From the sequence record OR234014.1: a stretch of DNA of 64,000 nt; one strand, given 5' to 3'. The notes under the pieces were generated by a model. It saw only the letters and a program-made list of their open reading frames with translations. It ran no database searches and was not told where the DNA came from. The translations under genes and the position numbers were made by a program. Positions 20,882-63,371 of this stretch are shown piece by piece (positions within the stretch are counted from its first letter, which is position 1; every line of letters starts with the position of its first letter). The DNA is from Staphylococcus phage SAC.

Positions 20882-21125
20882 TTATGTTACGATTAGGTTC
20901 GTTACTCCTAACCTTCTTGTAGTCTCCTACAAAGTTCAGACTATATCTTAACCATATCTAATGAGACTTAGGTTCTCCCTGTTTCCAATCACTTGATTGT
21001 ACATAATAGTCGTTGCACCTTCCTAGTAATTTATTAAGCTTGGCTCATGATTGTCTCAAATGAGAGAGTTCCCATGAATTAAAGGAGTTACACTTATAAT
21101 ATTTCTACTATAAGGGGCAAAATTT
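20879..21125 (-). mobile_element. ORF-less mini group I intron in the helicase gene (~247 nt)
   Basis: Minus-strand R-like GGUGCAACGACUAUUAU (~21010) and S-like AUAUAGUCUGAAC (~20932). It sits between Walker A codons: exon 1 ends ...AATGCAGGT (U) and exon 2 starts AAAACAGAGGTT after a G. Confidence 0.65.
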
Positions 21126-21563
21126 ACCTGCATTGGTAGCTTGCTTACATATACCATTATAATTGACTAAACTATTAAACACAGCTTCATACTGATAGTC
21201 ACGTAATGTAATCTTACCTACGTTATTATCTAGTAGCTGTATTTCATCATCAATATCTTCTTCAGCTAAAAAGCTTTCAGATTTTTCATCAATAATTTCG
21301 TATTGAAAGTTATGTCTTGATTGTAACTCACCTAGTAATGTTATCATCTTAGGTAACAACCCACTAGGGAATTTGTTCTCAGCATAATCGTAGAAATCCA
21401 CATAACCATCCCACACACCTCGTTTAAAAGCTAAGCTATGTTGATAGCCCTCTTTCTTAGCTCCTAACGTTTTATGAACACGCTTAAGTATGATATCTTT
21501 AATATACCCGTCACTTTCATCAAAATCTACATATGTATATATATTCTGTTGTCTTAATTGCAT
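21108..21563 (-). CDS. SF2 DNA helicase, exon 1 (N-terminal ~146 aa)
   Basis: Q-motif region (RDYQYEAV) and the start of Walker A (GICKQATNAGK). The final FCPL is intron read-through. Confidence 0.7.
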   Translation of the reverse strand: MQLRQQNIYTYVDFDESDGYIKDIILKRVHKTLGAKKEGYQHSLAFKRGVWDGYVDFYDYAENKFPSGLLPKMITLLGELQSRHNFQYEIIDEKSESFLAEEDIDDEIQLLDNNVGKITLRDYQYEAVFNSLVNYNGICKQATNAGKFCPL

Positions 21564-42297: not shown

Positions 42298-43167
42298 CTA
42301 AAAATTAGATTCTAATAATTGTTTTAATTTTCTACCTATTGCTTTCCCTGTTTCATTAGGGTTTTTACTTTTAGGTACTTCTATGTTATATTTAAGATTC
42401 TTTGGTTGATGGTCGTTTTTTAGAGCATGTCTAGGCATAACATCACTGCCTCCACCTCCGCCACCTATGAACTTGTCTGAACCTTTCATAATACTGGCAA
42501 TCATAGTATCCCAATTACCTGCTGTTGCATATTCATGAACACCATTGTTGTGTCTCATATCGTGTAAGTTCTTTTGTCCTTTGTTGTAGAAGTTGTCTCT
42601 AATCCATTTAGCACCACCAACAATACCCAAACCATAGTTAAAACCATTATTAGGATTGTTATCAAAAGCACCTATACCGAACCAGTTACCTTTGTTAGGG
42701 TCTCCTCCTTTGGAAAGATTTGATGTTCCCCAGCCTGTCTCAACAGCACTATGTGCTACTAAATACCTTGGGTCAAGTCCTGACTCTTTACCTGCTTTCA
42801 TATAAAGCTCACCTAAACCACGCATTTTAGAATTACTAGGTGCTTGAGACTCAATCCATTTATTTAACATTTCGGCGTTTACACCTTTAGCAGTTTTACC
42901 TAAGTCATGCTTAGTTACGTCTTTATCCGTAAAGTTTTTACCATCAAGGTAGTCAAGTGTTCCTCCTGATGAACTGTCGTTAGAACTACTACCTTTATTT
43001 GTTAGGTTATCTGCTAAATGGTCTAAGAAATGTGAGTATACTGTTACATTTCCTTCTCTAGAATCATTATTCTTTTCTCTTTTTTCTTCTGCTTTTTGCC
43101 TGTCTTTACTTTGTGATTTATCATTAATACCATAAGTTAAAACATATAAACAATAGTATACTTTCAT
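42298..43167 (-). CDS. glucosaminidase-domain protein; probably the 3' exon of the TMP
   Basis: Contains YLVAHSAVETGWGTS. It lies immediately after the TMP intron. Its N-terminal YCLYVLTYGINDKSQSK is paralogous, in DNA as well, to the segment just upstream of gene 41415-42239. Confidence 0.5.
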   Translation of the reverse strand: MKVYYCLYVLTYGINDKSQSKDRQKAEEKREKNNDSREGNVTVYSHFLDHLADNLTNKGSSSNDSSSGGTLDYLDGKNFTDKDVTKHDLGKTAKGVNAEMLNKWIESQAPSNSKMRGLGELYMKAGKESGLDPRYLVAHSAVETGWGTSNLSKGGDPNKGNWFGIGAFDNNPNNGFNYGLGIVGGAKWIRDNFYNKGQKNLHDMRHNNGVHEYATAGNWDTMIASIMKGSDKFIGGGGGGSDVMPRHALKNDHQPKNLKYNIEVPKSKNPNETGKAIGRKLKQLLESNF

Positions 43168-43660
43168 ATATAACCTATCGTATTAGTTATGTATATTTAT
43201 TTAATAACAAGTTTACCTTACAAAATAAGAAAGGTTTATATGCAGAAGTAGAATACAAATTTTAATTATTTATATATTTTAACAATGTTTAAATATACAC
43301 GCTACTGTATATTCTCTAGTTATTTCTAGACACTACCTTTCGGTACGTGCGCAGACTATTTGTTATCCCTATTAGTATAGGGTGAGTATTTTTCTTCCAC
43401 CAATCACTTGTGGCTTTACTTCCGTCACCTATACGGAATAGTCGTTGAACGTGTTCCGTAGACCTTTCAGGTCTTTAGGACTTTCGATGCTATACACCCA
43501 TTGTACTTCTCCTTAGGATTTAACCTTAGAGTATCTAACTAATTTTTTCTGATTTCTCAACATTCAAGCCTAGTCTTTCGACTTACTTTGTAGTTTAGTT
43601 AGCTTTAGTAGTTTCATAGCAGTTAACACTCGGTACTTACAGATTGCTCTATAAGCAAGG
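43168..43660 (-). mobile_element. group I intron at the 3' end of the TMP ORF (ORF-less)
   Basis: Minus-strand R GUUCAACGACUAUUC (~43450) and S AACAAAUAGUCUGCGC (~43365), plus a P8-like hairpin ccac...gtgg. ~85-90% identical to the cores at 55860-56190 and 61680-61996. The TMP stop codon lies inside the conserved intron motif GTTAAC. Confidence 0.65.
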
Positions 43661-54255: not shown

Positions 54256-54475
54256 TTAATATCTCCTTCCTACTATATGCCTATCATATTGGAGCCAAAG
54301 TAAGATTTTAACCCAGCTAATAGCTCTTTTATATCTTCATTAATTTGTAGTATTTGAGCACTTGCTCCACCATACATAGCAGATTGTGTAGTACCTATTG
54401 TTTCTGTAATACCATCTACATCTAGAGTTTTGTTTGCTATTCCTGCACCGATAATGAGATTACCATATGTTAATT

Positions 54476-56192
54476 AAATTAACTTCCTTTGTAAAATAAA
54501 AGGCATTATACATTCGGGTTATGGAACCCTACTAAAAGCAAACATATTATTGGTTTTGTTCTTTTAACCATTGGGAATTATGGTAGTTTTTTAAATTAAT
54601 ACTTGCATTTATATCCCTATCTTCTTCATATCCACAAGCATTACATTTAAAGACTTTATCACCTAACTGTAATTTTAAAGCATTTCTTTTTCTTTCTCCG
54701 CAATTACTGCATATTTGTGATGATGGATAATAAGTACTAGCTACTGTAAATTTTATACCTCTATCTTCACATTTATATTGTAATTGCTGTCTAATCATAT
54801 AGAAATTAGAAAACTGTATTTGTTTTCTTTTTTGTCCTGTATATCCTTTGTCTTTTATTAAATCACGAACTCTTATATCCTCTACAATAATCTCTTTAGG
54901 ATACTTTTCAACAATTTCTTTTGTTATTTCATGTACATGATTTTTAAGGATATTTGACATTTTTCTATAAACTTTAGCTATCTTATTTTCTAGCTTTAAA
55001 ACATTATTTGTTTTGGTGTGGTTAATATCATATTTATTACTTAATCTTTTCTGTAGGTCAGCTAATTTTTTTTCTAACCTTTTCATTTTCTTGGAATAAA
55101 TAATATTACCATATATTTTTCTGTTAGAACAAATTACGTGTTTTTTACCACTACCTAAGTCTATACCTATGACTTCGTTAGTATTATCCTTTTCTTTCTT
55201 GTATTGATTATCTACTTCAATTGAAAAAGATATATACCAATATTTACCATCATAGTAACATTTAGGGTTTAAAGGTTTAATGCTTTCATTCTCTAGTACT
55301 GATTTATTATTTTTATATGTACCATTAGAAATTCTTAAGTAACCTAATTTTTCAACTTTAACATGTTTTTCTTTGTTAAAGTGCATTCGGTCATATCTAA
55401 TAGGAAACCTCTTAGATTCCCTTTTCTTAGACTTAAATTTAGGTTTTCTAATTTCATGATTATGATATTTTATTAATGTTTCTCTTAAGTCATCTATTTT
55501 ACCAACTAAGGTTTTTCTAGATACTTCATTTAAGAAACTATACTTATCATCATTCTTTATTTCTTTTAGTATAGAAATCATATTTTTATGGTCTATATAT
55601 TTACCGTTATCGAGAGCTTTCCAATATCTTTCTAGCATATAATTATAAATAAATCTAGAATGGTTTACATGTTTCCACATTAACTCTTCTTGTTCTTGGG
55701 TAGGGTTTACTTTTAGTGTTATACCTCTATAAAATTTATTTTCCGTTTTTTTCATTTACTTTCACCACCTTATATATTATATCTATAATATAACATATAC
55801 TTGGGGTAATTTCAATAGGAAGTTTTCATTTAATTAACATTGTTTCCTTACTTACGCTACTAAATAAGTCTAGGTCAATTCCTAGCACTCCTTTTCAAGA
55901 CGTGTGCAGACTATTTGTTATCCCTATTAGTATAGGGTAAAGATTTTTCTTCTCCCAATCACTTGGAGCTTTACTTCTGTCGTCTATACAGAATAGTCGT
56001 TGAACGTATTCCTTATCTATTGACTTAGGACTTTCGATGCTAAACTTCCATTGCTCTTCTCCTTAGGATTTAACCTTAGAGTATCTAACTAATTTTTTCT
56101 GATTTCTCAACATTCAAGCTTAGTCTTTCGACTTACTTTGTAGTTTAGTTAGTTTTAGGATTTCTTAGCAGTTAACCTTTGAAAATGTGCAA
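54476..56192 (-). mobile_element. IStron-like chimera: group I intron core plus IS605-family tnpB plus hairpin 3' module
   Basis: 5' core (55860-56190) has R GUUCAACGACUAUUCUG and S AACAAAUAGUCUGCAC. A P1 pairing is plausible between exon UGUGU and intron GCACA. The TnpB ORF lies in the 3' part, followed by the hairpin module GGGUUCCAUAACCC. Confidence 0.65.
54547..55755 (-). CDS. tnpB: TnpB (IS605 OrfB-family RuvC-like nuclease)
   Basis: 402 aa. RuvC-I (VIGIDLGSGKK), RuvC-II (IIVEDIRV), zinc finger (CSNCGERK...CNACGYEE) and RuvC-III (DRDINASINL), with the typical N-terminal YRGITLKVNPTQEQEE...RFIYNY. Confidence 0.85.
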   Translation of the reverse strand: MKKTENKFYRGITLKVNPTQEQEELMWKHVNHSRFIYNYMLERYWKALDNGKYIDHKNMISILKEIKNDDKYSFLNEVSRKTLVGKIDDLRETLIKYHNHEIRKPKFKSKKRESKRFPIRYDRMHFNKEKHVKVEKLGYLRISNGTYKNNKSVLENESIKPLNPKCYYDGKYWYISFSIEVDNQYKKEKDNTNEVIGIDLGSGKKHVICSNRKIYGNIIYSKKMKRLEKKLADLQKRLSNKYDINHTKTNNVLKLENKIAKVYRKMSNILKNHVHEITKEIVEKYPKEIIVEDIRVRDLIKDKGYTGQKRKQIQFSNFYMIRQQLQYKCEDRGIKFTVASTYYPSSQICSNCGERKRNALKLQLGDKVFKCNACGYEEDRDINASINLKNYHNSQWLKEQNQ

Positions 56193-56193
56193 C

Positions 56194-56943
56194 TTACGCT
56201 ACACACAGGGTAATATCATCGTAACCCCATATTTGGTAAATTTCTTTTAGTGCATATTTAATAACTAATTGCTCTAATTCTGGTGGTACTTCCCATGGTT
56301 TAGTTCTACCTGCTCTTTGTCTAGGTAACATACCACTAATATAATCTAATGTAATCATTTGAGGTGCAAAAGTTGCTCTACTTGGCGGGTACATTCCTGC
56401 TAATTGAGGATATCCACTGAATACAGCATCGTAAGACATAGATTGACCCGTCTGCATTAAAGCTGTAGGGAATAACTGTACGTGACCTGCTAAATGCTCC
56501 ACTTTCCACCAGTTAGCTGGATAATCATACATAGGTCTACCATTAAATTGTAGTTGTAAATTTTCTACCTGTAATATAGGTTTTTTATATGCGTGTACAA
56601 ACATATAACTATTAAATTCTGTTTCGTAGTAATCTCTCATTTCATGTTGTAAGTCAGGTAAAATAGATATATCTAAAGCTCTTTCCGCTTTACCTATAGC
56701 TCTTTCTAATATATGATTATAAAAATCATCACCCATAGGTTGTCCTGTATCGGGGTTTTGTACTGTTATACCAAACATATAGGCTTTCACAGCATCTGCT
56801 GACCAACCATAATCAGCTAGAGTAATATTATCTAATTCTCTTTTATCTATATGTTTTGGGTTTCCAGATGGGTGATAAGGATACTCATATGATAAAGAGC
56901 TTTCGTAAGGGTCTAAACTACCACCAAACATACTGTTTACCAT
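56194..56943 (-). CDS. virion structural protein, 5' exon
   Basis: 249 aa. The ORF terminates at the intron boundary (stop ~18 nt from the conserved GTTAAC, as in the portal gene), implying continuation in a short 3' exon beyond the IStron. Confidence 0.45.
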   Translation of the reverse strand: MVNSMFGGSLDPYESSLSYEYPYHPSGNPKHIDKRELDNITLADYGWSADAVKAYMFGITVQNPDTGQPMGDDFYNHILERAIGKAERALDISILPDLQHEMRDYYETEFNSYMFVHAYKKPILQVENLQLQFNGRPMYDYPANWWKVEHLAGHVQLFPTALMQTGQSMSYDAVFSGYPQLAGMYPPSRATFAPQMITLDYISGMLPRQRAGRTKPWEVPPELEQLVIKYALKEIYQIWGYDDITLCVA

Positions 56944-60521: not shown

Positions 60522-60670
60522 TTAATTGTTATTTTATATGTACATACATAATATAACAAAAAGTATATCATCAACATTATTCATTACTACACACATAGTA
60601 TAACATAGTATAAATGTAGCTCCAAATTAAAAAATAACAACCTAAGTATTAATTAGGTTGCTAATATTAT

Positions 60671-61378
60671 CTACATAAAGTCGGAAGATTTCTCACCTTT
60701 TCTTCCTTGTCCTTTATTTGATGTTTGTGTTCTATATACGTTATCATCACCTTTTAACTGATTATCTGTTCCTACATCTTGGTTAGTTGTTTCTTGTTTA
60801 CTATCATCTGTAGGCTCATCAGTTTGTGGTTGTGTATAACTCATAAGTAATTGAAGTCTTTCTTTTTGTTTAGTATCTAGGTATTGGTCTTTTTGTATTT
60901 CTTGTGCTGTACTTTGTAAAAATGCTGAGTCAAGAATTACATCTCCACCATCTATTGGTTTCAATCCCTGTTCTTCTCTTGCTTCATTTACAGTTTTATA
61001 TACTTGTACTTCTTTTTGTAAAATACTAAGCTTATCTAACTCAGACTTAGTATCTCCTCCAACGAATTGGAAAGTATACTTATCACCAAATTCAGATATA
61101 ATGTGTCTGTTAATTAATTCTTCTATAAATCTTAATAGAGGTTGTAAACCTTTATTCATAGATTGTTGTTGCTTCTTAGCAGGGTCTGACTCATTCAATG
61201 TAGAACCGCCTTTTGACCCTGTGGCTCCTCCTCCTCTATTAGGGAATCCTATTTCAGAAGGGTCTATACCATACAAAGCAGAAATAATATTGATTAAAAA
61301 GTTTAACCATTTCTCAAATTGCATATCATTTGCTGTTGGTGTCATATTAACAAACTTAACATCATCAGCCATCATCAC
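60671..61378 (-). CDS. portal protein, 3' exon
   Basis: The frame is open upstream through ...ILDYEVPV-MMADDVKFVNM to ~61393. It continues the 62000-62992 ORF across the intron. Confidence 0.6.
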   Translation of the reverse strand: MMMADDVKFVNMTPTANDMQFEKWLNFLINIISALYGIDPSEIGFPNRGGGATGSKGGSTLNESDPAKKQQQSMNKGLQPLLRFIEELINRHIISEFGDKYTFQFVGGDTKSELDKLSILQKEVQVYKTVNEAREEQGLKPIDGGDVILDSAFLQSTAQEIQKDQYLDTKQKERLQLLMSYTQPQTDEPTDDSKQETTNQDVGTDNQLKGDDNVYRTQTSNKGQGRKGEKSSDFM

Positions 61379-61392
61379 GGGGACTTCGTAAT

Positions 61393-61996
61393 CTAAAATT
61401 TATAAAAAATTTTATTCCTTTTTCAACGTATCCCTTTTTGAGTACCTTCATCATTACTAGTTACTTTTATATACTCTACTGAGGTTTGTATGATACTCTA
61501 AAGGCGTTAATTCGGGTTTACGGAACCCTACATATCATGTTTACTGTTTTATTTAGTTAAAACATGATATGGTTTAAGTATATCATAGAAAAGATTACTT
61601 GTCAACTAGTAAAGGAATAATTTTTTTTATAAACCTTAGTTTTATTTATTTACAAACGCTACTTTGTAAACCTGTGTCATTTCACATGCTCTACCTTTCA
61701 GTACGAGACTAGACTATTTGTTATCCCTATTGTGTAGGGTAAGGATTTTTCTTCTCCCAATAGCTTGGAGCTTTACTCCCGTCTTGTAACGGGATAGTCG
61801 TTGAACGTATTCCATAGACCTTTCAGTTCTTTAGGACTTTCGATGCTAAACAACCATTGTTCTTCGTCTTAGGATTTAACCTTAACGTATCTCAATATCT
61901 TTTTTCTACTTTCGTAACATTCAAGCCTACCCTTTCGGGTTACTTTGTAGTGTATTGAGCTTTAGGTGTTCTTAGCAGTTAACCCTTCATCTATAC
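61393..61996 (-). mobile_element. group I intron in the portal gene (ORF-less) with IStron-like 3' hairpin module
   Basis: Core (61680-61996) has R GUUCAACGACUAUCCCG and S AACAAAUAGUCUAGUC. It shows compensatory P8 changes relative to the TMP copy. The 3' region contains GGGUUCCGUAAACCCGAAUUAACGCCUUU at 61495-61527, homologous to the module after tnpB. Confidence 0.65.
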
Positions 61997-61999
61997 AAA

Positions 62000-62992
62000 T
62001 TACTTTATATAGAGGCAAATTTGCCAGCTACCGTTTATACCTGAAAAACTAGATTTCCATTCTCTTTTAAAGTTCTCTAACGCATGTTGAGATTGCTGTT
62101 GGTCAGCTCTAATCTGTAAGATACCTCTTGTTGTTCCACCGTGACTGAAGAACCTATCGTTAAAACTTTCAGTATTATTATAAGCTATAAATTCTTTCAT
62201 TGCAATCTCTACTTCTGACAATCCATACCCACTAGAATTTAAGTCTGACCTAGGGTTCCTAATACCCATGACAAGTTCTCTGCTTGTAAAACTAGCTACT
62301 ACTTGCTTATCTATGACCTGTACAAAGCGATTGCCACCTTTAATTATCTTACCGTTTTTATCAGTAGCATAAAAAATGGTGCTAGGGTCTACTGCAATAA
62401 ACTTCTCCATCTTAGTTTTGTTTTTAGGACTAAAAACTTTTTCGAAGTTAACTTGGTCGTACGTGTAAGTATCTCTTACTATTTTTTTACAAAACTCTTG
62501 GAATGAATCCCTGTCTATATCTTTATCTGTACCTGTATTAAGAATAAATTCTTCAATACGTTTCATCTGTTCTTTTTCTTTAATACCAGGTGTAGCGTCT
62601 AAGTCTTTTAATTTAACTTCAAAACCTACGCCTTTTTCTGAATATCTGGCAGGTTTACAGTATGTAGATACTTGGTTAGCTCTTGTAATAATTATAGCAT
62701 TTAGTATAGAGTTATTACCAAATTTCTTTAACACTTCATGTAAGTTATGAGCATTCCTCATATAGCTCTTCTTATCTCTATAATCAGGATTTGTATCCAT
62801 CATTTCTAAAAATGGTTCTGCATAAGCTTGCTGTTTACCATACAAAGATTTAGTAATTTCTTGCATCTCTTTTGTATCTTGTTCTATTTGTCTAATGTTA
62901 GCTTGTATTCCGTCATCTATAGGAACCATAAGGTCTTCAGTGTCTTCTTTATACATACTACCTAACCTTAGACTTTTAAATAAATCAGGCAA
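62000..62992 (-). CDS. portal protein, 5' exon
   Basis: 330 aa. Combined with the 3' exon it gives ~575 aa, in line with the ~560-aa portal proteins of related phages. Confidence 0.6.
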   Translation of the reverse strand: MPDLFKSLRLGSMYKEDTEDLMVPIDDGIQANIRQIEQDTKEMQEITKSLYGKQQAYAEPFLEMMDTNPDYRDKKSYMRNAHNLHEVLKKFGNNSILNAIIITRANQVSTYCKPARYSEKGVGFEVKLKDLDATPGIKEKEQMKRIEEFILNTGTDKDIDRDSFQEFCKKIVRDTYTYDQVNFEKVFSPKNKTKMEKFIAVDPSTIFYATDKNGKIIKGGNRFVQVIDKQVVASFTSRELVMGIRNPRSDLNSSGYGLSEVEIAMKEFIAYNNTESFNDRFFSHGGTTRGILQIRADQQQSQHALENFKREWKSSFSGINGSWQICLYIK

Positions 62993-62996
62993 CTTT

Positions 62997-63371
62997 TTAT
63001 TTACCTCCTCGAATAGTAGTTAGTATAACAGTGTTATTATAGGTAATGTCTTGGATATGTTTAGGAATATTTATCTTTACTTCGAATGGTTCTTCTATAT
63101 AGTAAAACATTTTCTTACTTTCCATAACAATATCATAATCCTCTAACACAATATTATTATCCTTATCTACCAATATTACTTTATTATCCTTTGTAGCTTC
63201 TAGTACCATATATTTAACTTTATCAATAGCAATAAACATAGCTACATGTTTACCACCTATCTGTCTATAATAATCCACTACTTCTATCCAATTATCTGCT
63301 AATCCTTGACCTTTTATAAAGTCTTTTGCTTCATCCCATTTATCGTCTTTTGAAAATAGCAAATGCTTCAA
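62997..63371 (-). CDS. hypothetical protein
   Basis: 124-aa ORF. Confidence 0.35.
   Translation of the reverse strand: MKHLLFSKDDKWDEAKDFIKGQGLADNWIEVVDYYRQIGGKHVAMFIAIDKVKYMVLEATKDNKVILVDKDNNIVLEDYDIVMESKKMFYYIEEPFEVKINIPKHIQDITYNNTVILTTIRGGK

Follow-up and report, generated by a model that had tools for sequence, protein, structure and literature searches.

The insert in the portal gene of phage StAP1 is probably a degenerate IS607-type IStron that retains its guide-RNA module

Group B (IS607-family) IStrons are exemplified by BcISt1 of Bacillus cereus (PMC4227781) and by the CboIStron of Clostridium botulinum and its phages (10.1101/2023.11.20.567912). A long AU-rich inverted repeat is a hallmark of the group (PMC4227781), the group is known to lack a U.G pair at the 5' splice site, and splicing needs only the last 18 nt of the IStron right end (PMC13521648). 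RAGATH-18 is the core of IS607 TnpB reRNAs, and in the published reRNA the 5' flank begins 13 nt past the tnpB stop (PMC11061315). Here we describe an insert in the portal gene within a 64,000-nt stretch of DNA (the window), which is 100% identical to the Silviavirus phage StAP1 (KX532239.1). Overall, our data suggest, with a probability of about 0.85, that this insert is a degenerate, non-autonomous IS607-type ("group B") IStron whose guide-RNA module is a recent fossil.

Limits of the portal insert and its ribozyme core

The portal gene appears in the window as two ORFs:

60671..61378 and 62000..62992, minus strand: portal ORFs flanking the insert

A sequence-only reading of the window had described a portal gene split over two ORFs with an ORF-less stretch between them, which agrees with our analysis, as the longest ORF in the insert on either strand has 37 aa. 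The limits it gave located the insert approximately, but they are ORF limits, not splice sites. Read-through of ORFs into the portal intron, and into the intron of a second element near 54 kb (the 54k element), is fortuitous. Portal alleles without the insert, which had been suggested as a check, were found in V1SA22 and Romulus; the insertion site is empty in both, and both lack exactly 636 nt. Comparison with uninterrupted portals gave the following limits:

61387..62022, minus strand: whole mini-IStron, 636 nt, group I intron plus remnant of the IS part, placed by alignment with the uninterrupted V1SA22 portal
62023..62992, minus strand: portal 5' exon, TTG start at 62992 after a GAGGAGG ribosome-binding site (alternative ATG at 62956)
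60671..61386, minus strand: portal 3' exon, beginning AAGTCCCCGTGATGATGG and running to the stop, from comparison of the spliced frame

Because of an AA repeat, these limits carry a 2-nt ambiguity (alternative 62020..61385), and the 5' exon ends in ...GGTAGCTGGC or in ...GGCAA; the intron-less portal alleles L003 and L004 read GGTAGCTGGCAAGTCCCC and GGTAGCTGGCAGGTGCC. We chose the register 62022..61387, which ends in G and puts the pseudoknot partner UACG at the very end, with the boundaries ...GCTGGC/AAAUUU...UUACG/AAG. Precise removal of the insert restores the host frame: excision of 62022..61387 yields a 549-aa portal that aligns without gaps to the V1SA22 portal at 99.5% identity, and a Pfam Phage_portal match spans the exon junction. 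Splice sites at 62016..61384, derived from the reading frame and a U...G rule, were rejected, as both ends are wrong according to the intron-less alleles. A canonical U.G pair is not evident at the portal 5' splice site. With a terminal G at 61387, which is possible, the 5' exon ends in a C that would pair with G62016 in a GGCA/UGCC P1 helix. This hairpin is the more likely P1; pairing of CAAAUU with AAUUUG as internal guide sequence was discarded, as HM01 and V1SA20 carry a G>A change there.

The 5' part of the insert resembles a group I ribozyme:

61689..62022, minus strand: group I ribozyme core, P1-P9, with P7.1- and P7.2-type hairpins inserted after P7

This core carries GUUCAACGACUA (J6/7-P7) and AACAAAUAGUCU (P7'). 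Rfam searches at default settings or at window scale reported no group I intron at the portal insert, and the full-length Intron_gpI match from a local 671-nt search (24.4 bits, E 4.9e-4) lies below the gathering score of 50. The group I assignment therefore relied on covariation: the RNAalifold consensus of five family members contains 69 pairs, 33 of them with compensatory changes, which argues for a group I catalytic core. The same core occurs in four other introns of the window, as expected from the earlier remark that the insert has a conserved intron core.

Remnants of a tnpB-bearing parent and of its guide RNA

Downstream of the ribozyme core, the insert contains a series of IS-derived parts:

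61611..61642, minus strand: 5' arm of a long AU-rich inverted repeat around the IS cargo, 32 nt, 84% complementary to 61390-61421
61577..61605, minus strand: retained tnpB promoter, a candidate by consensus match (TTGACA-17 nt-TATACT, 11/12 positions, TG extended -10)
61567..61568, minus strand: deletion junction ...AAACCATA/TCATG..., ~1.2 kb lost relative to St1.CM (L001 1633-2833)
61549..61566, minus strand: relic of the tnpB 3' end, CAT GTT TTA ACT AAA TAA (HVLTK and stop), identical to the end of St1.CM TnpB
61531..61571, minus strand: perfect 12-bp hairpin around the tnpB stop, CATATCATGTTT / AAACATGATATG, from an inverted-repeat search
61514..61528, minus strand: putative 5'-flank stem-loop of a TnpB reRNA/omegaRNA, GGGUU-CCGUA-AACCC, with the architecture of PMC11061315
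61415..61504, minus strand: RAGATH-18 motif (Rfam RF03064), central part of the reRNA scaffold including the k-turn
61387..61421, minus strand: 3' arm of the AU-rich inverted repeat, corresponding to the reRNA 3' flank, ending UACG (61390..61387)

An AU-rich inverted-repeat stem of the group B kind (15-34 bp) encloses the ORF region. The parent of the insert is represented by St1.CM, in which this site holds a ~99% identical copy of the element; its 400-aa tnpB is intact and encodes a match to the guided_TnpB model (NF040570, 253 bits). This full-length allele is ~99% identical on either side of the StAP1 deletion junction. In St1.CM the promoter sits 18 nt upstream of the tnpB start, and in Romulus a promoter is annotated upstream of tnpB. 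Relative to St1.CM, the deletion removed the ribosome-binding site and nearly all of tnpB, and the hairpin around the tnpB stop grew from 9 to 12 bp through the junction. The IS607-type TnpB ORF of group B is absent from the insert, in which the last six codons remain; RAGATH-18 is not immediately 3' of an IS607-type tnpB in the window, but it is in St1.CM, where it begins 44 nt past the tnpB stop. The proposed reading as a TnpB-less mini-IStron is thus borne out: the ~1.2-kb deletion is clean and leaves the promoter of tnpB and its six terminal codons in place.

Related phages show further states of the same site. The full-length IStron is present in St1.CM, RP15 and MR003; in the latter two, the annotation divides tnpB into two ORFs, and the alignment shows single-base indels. 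StAP1, HM01 and V1SA19 share the identical ~1.2-kb deletion, CIFT28 has a separate ~920-nt deletion that took the promoter, and in V1SA20 a bigger one extends over the hairpin and into RAGATH-18, of which the 5' half is gone. At this site tnpB has been lost or crippled by several different routes, and tnpA was neither annotated nor seen in any allele examined. Silviavirus phages thereby offer a natural deletion series at one site, at ~98-99% identity: intact tnpB, two-ORF tnpB, three internal deletions and empty. The series repeats laboratory mutagenesis of IStrons, in which the extreme 3' end alone is needed for splicing and the remaining right end serves TnpB. Natural deletions at two sites agree with this short requirement, as V1SA20 at the portal site is matched by Romulus at the 54k site, where merely the last 25 nt are retained.

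A hairpin shared between the portal insert and the site after the 54k tnpB had been noticed before, and it is real, with coordinates off by ~1 nt and ~8 nt, respectively: the copies are GGGTTCCGTAAACCCGAAT at 61528..61511 and GGGTTCCATAACCCGAAT at 54529..54512, the only two in 64 kb (chance expectation 0.07). It starts 20 nt past the tnpB stop in St1.CM and 19 nt past it in the 54k element. The label of an intron 3' hairpin module did not hold; the hairpin appears instead to be the 5' flank of a TnpB guide-RNA scaffold, and natural deletions removing the module leave viable phages. Directly 3' of the portal copy lies RAGATH-18, which had been overlooked (60.6 bits, with a gathering score of 44.9; E 1.6e-9 in the 64-kb search). 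The motif scores 68.4 bits in St1.CM and 67.8 bits in CIFT28, and the CIFT_MFB_MRSA28 record annotates it at the same locus.

The window and St1.CM differ at six places in the intron, and all six lie in the 91-nt RAGATH-18. Among them is a G>A change at an otherwise invariant position (GGAG to AGAG), which is position 3n of the k-turn in the register of PMC8191799. Two others (T>C and a 1-nt deletion) restore the family consensus, a GA change also occurs in the divergent VL10 allele, whose element appears truncated at the 5' end, and CCUU to CCUC affects a variable position. We therefore did not adopt accelerated decay of an orphan omegaRNA as an explanation; it is only suggestive, because only the G>A in GGAG hits an invariant base.

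The loop of the hairpin, CCGUA (61523..61519), is complementary to the terminal UACG. In a comparison of ten related elements, the loop and the final 4-7 nt, which lie at the 3' splice site, covary and form three classes: CCGUA/UACG(G), CCAU(G)/(C)AUGG and UCGUUGU/ACAACGG. The covariation score was 0.353 versus 0.148 in shuffles, and 0/500 shuffles reached the observed value; both sides changed in 3/4 hairpin-stem pairs and, in fixed register, in 2/5 pseudoknot pairs. A cross-class control allowing G.U pairs was not discriminating, since CCGUA can pair with UAUGG, and the column-wise count was more informative. The loop-terminus pairing corresponds to pseudoknot PK2 of the ISFba1 reRNA structure (PMC11061315), and the insert probably has the reRNA arrangement of a 5'-flank stem-loop whose loop pairs with the scaffold 3' end. 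The UACG end would be both the pseudoknot partner and the site of the proposed 3' splice-site G. The reRNA 3' flank of the portal element has 28 nt with one possible AU hairpin, and equivalents of SL2, SL3 and PK1 of the solved reRNA were not found in it. By analogy with IStron biology (10.1101/2023.11.20.567912, PMC13565253), the first ~20 nt of the portal 3' exon would be the omegaRNA guide.

For comparison, the window contains a full-length relative of the insert:

54463..56224, minus strand: full-length IS607-type IStron, 1762 nt, in a virion structural gene
55755..54547, minus strand: intact tnpB of the 54k element, 402 aa

This element is inserted after ATATGGGG, has U as first base and ends ATGG; its AU-rich repeat arms are 55840-55807 with 54498-54467. 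Its limits had been placed at 54476..56192; the true ones are 56224..54463. A second pair, 56200..54463, from the frame and the U...G rule, failed at the 5' end, where the junction lies 24 nt upstream at ATATGGGG, and held at 54463. At the right end, the hairpin (54529..54516) is followed by no more than the outer stem of RAGATH-18, and an Rfam search of the window did not find the full motif after tnpB at 54.5 kb. As had been proposed, the portal element and the tnpB-bearing element are related at both ends, with a very similar core with compensated stems, an AU-rich repeat and the hairpin. They differ in pseudoknot class, RAGATH-18 content and termini.

Why the guide-RNA module may have been retained

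Together, these data suggest a model in which the element, read 5' to 3' on the minus strand, would consist of a ~330-nt ribozyme core, the left repeat arm, the former tnpB promoter, a deletion scar and a guide-RNA scaffold. In this scaffold, a hairpin as 5' flank and RAGATH-18 would precede a short 3' flank, which is at once the right repeat arm and ends at the 3' splice site. Towards the 3' end of the element's transcript, two folds would exclude each other. In one, pairing of the long inverted repeat would loop out the cargo and bring the 3' splice site to the ribozyme, leading to splicing and production of the portal. In the other, the omegaRNA fold (hairpin, RAGATH-18 and pseudoknot) would hide the 3' splice site, and the omegaRNA with TnpB would direct cleavage of intron-less portal alleles, the guide being the initial ~20 nt of the 3' exon. 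Through the covarying pseudoknot, the guide-RNA fold would be physically joined to the 3' splice site, which would explain in concrete structural terms why splicing and guide RNA conflict, as has been published. As StAP1 has no cognate TnpB, the element would now act simply as a self-splicing intron and be passed on vertically or by ordinary recombination, with a guide-RNA module that is a recent fossil, not yet eroded and dispensable for splicing.

The module is nearly intact, with one substitution at a conserved k-turn position, and sequence alone does not separate a fossil from a scaffold used in trans. It is unlikely, yet conceivable, that the mini-IStron, by virtue of the promoter and omegaRNA that it has kept, is a homing element of a non-autonomous, RNA-guided kind. 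TnpB would then come in trans, either from the resident 54k element or from an St1.CM-like phage infecting the same cell, and cut intron-less portals; in the course of repair, the mini-element would spread or the rival phage be excluded. A strong promoter (11/12 plus TG) and the whole scaffold survived the deletion, with the scaffold still above the Rfam threshold; the empty V1SA22 site matches the would-be guide exactly (target TGGCAA-GTCCCCGTG), the empty Romulus site shows three mismatches, all synonymous, and in E. coli a mini-IS supplied the guide for TnpB in trans (10.1101/2023.11.20.567912). Exon differences between StAP1 and Romulus also cluster at the two portal insertion sites, and at site B every one of them is synonymous, a pattern that an arms race over the target sequence would be expected to produce. 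However, this possibility is weakened by the 5' flank, which is not a known IS607 TAM, by the G>A at the invariant k-turn position in the window lineage, and by the loss of the promoter (CIFT28) or half the scaffold (V1SA20) in other lineages.

The supply of TnpB points the same way. With the StAP1 record covered up to its last ~600 nt, a single tnpB was found, the product of which is just 42.5% identical to the cognate St1.CM TnpB, and neither other tnpB genes nor RAGATH-like motifs were found in the rest of the StAP1 genome. In SSP49, the portal segment is identical to that of the window, the 54k site is tnpB-less and the sole TnpB match is ~44% identical. An intact TnpB in the 54k element, together with a right end of that element from which the RAGATH-18 interior is missing, would favour use of the portal omegaRNA. 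We rejected such a dependence, as the 54k IStron is full-length in V1SA22, where the portal site is empty, and in V1SA20, where the omegaRNA is truncated, and is therefore independent of the portal omegaRNA. It is quite unlikely that the mini-IStron is a "guide-only" selfish element that shed its nuclease gene, kept a promoter-driven omegaRNA with the portal 3' exon as guide, and has intron-less portals cut by TnpB that it parasitises from other IStrons, be they resident or carried by a co-infecting phage. If true, such an element would be an RNA-guided analogue of trans-homing by defunct homing-endonuclease introns and a weapon in phage-phage competition.

We consider it very improbable that the hairpin and RAGATH-18 are kept because the intron needs them, as a P9-type extension for folding, 3' splice-site choice or portal timing. 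Two separate deletions (StAP1-type and CIFT28) both end before the module, its hairpin loop pairs with 3' splice-site nucleotides, and omegaRNA structure modulates IStron splicing (PMC13521648). However, the published omegaRNA fold represses splicing (10.1101/2023.11.20.567912, PMC13521648), and the V1SA20 portal and Romulus 54k deletions dispense with most or part of the right end. Tail-tube introns of the same family lack the entire tail and the tape-measure (TMP) intron keeps only a remnant; the earlier view that the motif is not a generic P9 element, being absent from these introns, was correct. The module also follows free-standing, apparently intron-less tnpB genes in Twort, SEP1 and S25-3. 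Finally, there is next to no chance that the portal intron is an ancestral ORF-less intron that later received tnpB, or a direct derivative of the element at 54.5-56.2 kb, both of which had been proposed and which the similar ribozyme core, hairpin and inverted-repeat layout of the two elements would fit: the promoter on one side and the last six tnpB codons with the stop on the other flank a clean deletion junction, the full-length allele matches on both sides of it, and the parent is a different IStron at the portal site, with TnpB only 42.5% identical to that of the 54k element and with the differences in pseudoknot class, RAGATH-18 content and termini given above. Judged by sequence, the 54k element is a paralogue and not the source of the insert.

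Relation of the portal element to known systems

All observations fit published IStron biology, and current understanding is not overturned. Annotations of therapeutic Staphylococcus phages routinely break up the genes for portal, tail and tape measure, wrongly listing two or three "hypothetical proteins" and a "transposase" in their place; naming such loci IStrons or IStron relics corrects the annotation, and recognising IStrons flags TnpB-bearing phages as carriers of active RNA-guided nucleases.

Like group B IStrons, the portal element has a group I ribozyme 5' and IS cargo 3', a long AU-rich inverted repeat that encloses the ORF region, and a TnpB guide RNA that overlaps the right end and the 3' splice site. 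In that group, too, the IS part often degenerates while the element stays in the host gene, and ORF-less variants of BcISt1 are known. The 54k element fits group B fully, being inserted after TGGGG with U as first base and a GG end; these boundary features are found at the 54k element (ATATGGGG/UUACG...CATATGG), at Romulus portal site A and in DH2. In contrast, the portal element has no GG-ending site, first U or (C)GG end: its 5' flank is TGGC(AA), it lacks an initial U and it ends UUACG instead of CGG. It also differs in having neither tnpA nor tnpB, and in its host gene, which is structural and essential and belongs to a virulent Staphylococcus myovirus. As no serine recombinase was seen, it must have spread by homing or recombination, not by transposition.

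The order of parts in the scaffold, a 5'-flank stem-loop, RAGATH-18 with a k-turn and a 3' flank, is that of the RAGATH-18-derived reRNA of ISFba1 (PMC11061315), and the 5' flank begins at a similar distance past the tnpB stop. Unlike that reRNA, the portal scaffold has a 3' flank of 28 nt, compared with 64 nt in the solved structure, no adjacent TnpB gene in the window, and A.A instead of A.G at 3b:3n of the k-turn, and it is guide scaffold and group I intron 3' end in one. The element further resembles ORF-less homing-endonuclease phage introns of the T4 and Twort type, which are patchy among near-identical phages, have a decayed mobility gene and show exon differences clustered at the insertion site. 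Here, however, the lost mobility gene encoded an RNA-guided TnpB nuclease and not a protein-only homing endonuclease, so that the target was specified by an RNA, which the relic still contains.

An ORF-less group I intron in the portal gene

The 60600-63000 segment is 100% identical to StAP1 (KX532239.1; Silviavirus, Herelleviridae). All genes discussed here lie on the minus strand and make up the virion module, which includes portal, prohead protease, scaffold and capsid genes. The sequence-only reading had proposed that the portal gene is split by an ORF-less insert, and comparison with the uninterrupted portal gene of V1SA22 confirmed this with slightly shifted coordinates. As V1SA22 reads GGTAGCTGGCAAGTCCCCGTG where the window reads GGTAGCTGGCAAATTTGCC...GATTACGAAGTCCCCGTG, the insert at this position (site B) is 636 nt long (62022..61387); a shared AA permits a shift of up to 2 nt further 3'. 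Between the portal ORFs neither strand has an ORF longer than 37 aa. The joined exons encode a protein of 549 aa whose alignment to the V1SA22 portal is gap-free (99.5% identity), and the Pfam Phage_portal match spans the exon junction.

Features of the portal element and of the tnpB-bearing 54k element
62000..62992 and 60671..61378, minus strand: portal ORFs flanking the insert (ORF limits)
61605..61577, minus strand: near-consensus promoter (TTGACA, 17 nt, TATACT, TG present) upstream of the hairpin and RAGATH-18
56224..54463, minus strand: 54k element, 1762 nt, first base U, ends ATGG, inserted after ATATGGGG

The 5' half of the portal element is a group I ribozyme. A window-scale Rfam search reported no group I intron at this locus; the 671-nt region alone gave a full-length Intron_gpI alignment (62035..61689, 24.4 bits, E 4.9e-4, below the gathering score) with the usual J6/7-P7 and P7' consensus. 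Large insertions lie in P5 and after P7, where P7.1 and P7.2 sit. The family has four members elsewhere in the window:

~43.6 kb: tape-measure gene
~49.5 and ~49.1 kb: tail-tube gene, two members
~56.2 kb: tnpB element

When three of the window copies and two from other Staphylococcus phages were folded to a consensus, P3, P4, P5 with extensions, P6, P7.1, P7.2, P8 and P9 were recovered, with 33 of 69 pairs maintained by changes on both sides. The ORF-less tape-measure intron (~43140-43660, minus strand) has a ~190-nt tail carrying CCTTTCTTATTTTGTAAGG, which resembles the mini-RAGATH stem of the 54k element, and its terminus, TTTTAACTTATGG, is like those of the 54k element and of the Romulus element at another portal position (site A). 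It lacks a GGGTTCC hairpin and is probably a further IStron relic at a more eroded stage. The tail-tube introns (~49520-49235 and ~49130-48860, minus strand; ~270-290 nt each, ~100 nt apart in one gene) both lack an IS-derived tail. A separate canonical group I intron lies at 20916-21135 (minus strand; Intron_gpI, 91 bits); no other in the window reaches the Rfam gathering threshold.

The 3' half of the portal element is an IS607-type element remnant. It contains a complete RAGATH-18 (61504..61415; Rfam, 60.6 bits, gathering score 44.9, E 1.6e-9). RAGATH-18 forms the middle of the guide RNA (reRNA or omegaRNA) used by IS607-family TnpB nucleases (PMC11061315). The reRNA studied in detail starts 13 nt past the tnpB stop and comprises, in order, a 37-nt 5' flank, a 73-nt RAGATH-18, a 64-nt 3' flank and the guide (PMC11061315). 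The hairpin singled out by the sequence-only reading lies exactly where the reRNA 5' flank is expected. Its proposed sharing with the 54k element, and its absence from the tape-measure and tail-tube introns, were confirmed by a motif search, which moved the coordinates slightly: one copy lies at 61528..61511 and another, after the 54k tnpB, at 54529..54512, with no third copy in the window (chance expectation, 0.07 matches).

Origin by deletion

Portal alleles lacking the insert were found in V1SA22 and Romulus, among several states of site B in relatives.

States of site B
St1.CM: intact 400-aa tnpB, element ~1.84 kb
RP15 and MR003 (1552-2757 of genome stretches L008 and L009): tnpB split into two annotated ORFs, alignment with single-base indels
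StAP1 (window), HM01 and V1SA19: ~1.2-kb deletion; SSP49 matches the window exactly at this site
CIFT28: different ~920-nt deletion, with promoter and N-terminal three quarters of tnpB lost
V1SA20: larger deletion, with hairpin and 5' half of RAGATH-18 also lost
V1SA22 and Romulus: empty
Koomba-kaat_1, SAP_01 and qdsa001: empty, judged by hit length only

Five further CIFT_MFB records have the CIFT28 hit pattern, and the RP15/MR003 state is an intermediate decay stage between St1.CM and StAP1. The window is ~99% identical to St1.CM on either side of the deletion, whose junction joins the tnpB promoter region (...TATACTTAAACCATA) to the last six tnpB codons and stop (HVLTK*; TCATGTTTTAACTAAATAA...). 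The portal element is a deletion derivative rather than an ancestor, and the suggestion of an ancestral intron into which tnpB inserted is refuted because the junction retains both of these tnpB flanks. A hairpin around the tnpB stop codon (61531-61571, minus strand) has grown from 9 to 12 perfect bp through the junction (CATATCATGTTT and AAACATGATATG), which may be chance or a trace of how the deletion arose. The VL10 site-B element (OP940114.1; L013 1068-1695) is missing ~210 nt from the start of the ribozyme (P1-P6), ends ...TTTTAACTG and is followed by a 3' exon without AAGTC; as deposited, this portal could not be spliced, which points to an assembly error or to a truly split portal.

Derivation from the 54k element, also proposed earlier, was not borne out. 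The parent TnpB (St1.CM site B) and the TnpB at 54.5-55.8 kb share only 42.5% identity, so the portal and 54k elements are paralogues rather than parent and offspring. The parent TnpB is 50% identical to a third TnpB (Romulus, Stau2 and KSAP7) at portal site A, ~105 nt upstream of site B. The 54k element is indeed a tnpB-bearing IStron, but its earlier limits, 54476-56192, gave way to 56224..54463 on comparison with the intron-less St1.CM allele, in which the 5' exon ends ATATGGGG (window 56225). It shows the textbook hallmarks of group-B (IS607) IStrons, namely a GG-ending target/TAM, first base U and GG terminus (PMC4227781; 10.1101/2023.11.20.567912), and is a canonical IS607-type IStron. 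ORF 56194..56943 extends 24 nt into it by chance read-through. Its intact 402-aa TnpB matches the guided_TnpB model and conserves IGIDLG, EDI and DRD, the expected sites of the three RuvC catalytic residues, and the zinc-finger cysteines. Beyond tnpB, the right end has the hairpin, the pseudoknot and, of RAGATH-18, just the outer stem (GCCUUU-UAUUUUAC-AAAGGAA), with no Rfam match. The same site carries tnpB-less forms in KSAP7 (hairpin retained) and Romulus (only the last 25 nt retained).

IStron-type elements have a hotspot in the portal gene of Twortvirinae. DH2 (OM373548.1; L014 ~2100-2260) has a third portal-gene site, with insertion after ...TTAATGAGG, end CTTACGG, a TnpB 65% identical to that of St1.CM and a full RAGATH-18-like scaffold. 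StAP1 is occupied at B and empty at A, Romulus the reverse. Their exons differ at ~15 of 120 aligned columns around site A (62126 region) and at 5 in the 30-column bin with site B (62023), with no mismatch across the ~570 preceding columns. The site-B differences are all synonymous (CAA GTC CCC GTG versus CAG GTG CCT GTT), three of them in the opening 12 nt of what would be the target. Such clustering hints at past homing and fits either co-conversion or escape of the target site from RNA-guided cleavage.

A covarying pseudoknot at the predicted 3' splice site and a proposed competing fold

Ten right ends were compared (portal site B, two alleles; DH2; SAP_01; Fi4S2; SEP1; Twort; S25-3; Romulus site A; 54k element). 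In all ten, the hairpin carries an apical loop complementary to the final 4-7 nt of the element, both co-changing in three classes: CCGUA with UACG(G), CCAU(G) with (C)AUGG, and UCGUUGU with ACAACGG. The stem covaries too (for example, GGGUU/AACCC versus CCGUU/AACGG). The column-wise covariation score was 0.353 versus 0.148 for shuffles (0/500 shuffles reached 0.353), and sliding the 3' partner either way lowered it. The pairing corresponds to PK2 in the cryo-EM structure of the ISFba1 reRNA, a pseudoknot required for RNP formation (PMC11061315). The third class is that of SEP1, Twort and S25-3 (~1998-2200 of L017, L018 and L019), which have an intergenic tnpB, apparently without upstream intron, and a seemingly complete hairpin, RAGATH-18 and terminus ...GACAACGG.

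For an IStron, the 3' partner in the pseudoknot coincides with the 3' splice site. In the portal element, the pairing argues that the scaffold, and hence the intron, ends at G61387, with a 5' exon ending ...GCTGGC and a 3' exon beginning AAGUCC.

A 32-nt AU-rich inverted repeat (61642-61611/61421-61390, 84% complementary) encloses promoter, tnpB relic, hairpin and RAGATH-18; an equivalent repeat surrounds the 54k tnpB, and such a stem is a defining feature of group-B IStrons (PMC4227781). Its pairing would carry the 3' splice site to the ribozyme. The 3' arm overlaps the RAGATH-18 closing stem and the whole 3' flank, reaching the terminal UACG, and the two predicted folds could not coexist. 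This exclusivity fits the published conflict, in which omegaRNA structure and TnpB repress IStron splicing (10.1101/2023.11.20.567912; PMC13521648). Splicing needs just the final 18 nt of the right end (PMC13521648), and omegaRNA-destabilising mutations raise it (10.1101/2023.11.20.567912; PMC13521648); the natural deletions in V1SA20 and Romulus point the same way.

Fate of the guide RNA and relation to known IStrons

The hairpin/RAGATH-18 module is most likely a recent fossil. StAP1 has a single, non-cognate tnpB, the 54k copy, in all but the last ~600 nt of its 135.5-kb record, and full-length 54k elements occur in phages without any portal omegaRNA. SSP49, with a portal segment identical to the window, has a tnpB-less form at the 54k site, and its sole TnpB match is ~44% identical. 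The window lineage also carries a G>A change in the invariant GGAG of RAGATH-18, at position 3n of the crystallised k-turn (A.G to A.A); the other five window/St1.CM differences are at family-variable positions or common to other alleles. Use of the orphan guide RNA in trans thus seems quite improbable.

We found no literature reading these Staphylococcus-phage loci as IStrons or IStron relics; GenBank records of CIFT_MFB phages label the same spot "RAGATH-18", and those of Romulus and Remus label the site-A ORF "transposase, IS605 OrfB family". Every component of the portal element has been described previously: group-B IStrons, including ORF-less variants and Clostridium botulinum phage copies (PMC4227781; 10.1101/2023.11.20.567912), RAGATH-18 as TnpB reRNA (PMC11061315) and the way splicing conflicts with the guide RNA (10.1101/2023.11.20.567912). 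From the group-B definition the site-B element departs in one feature only, its non-canonical termini (TGGC/A...UUACG/, slashes marking the boundaries).
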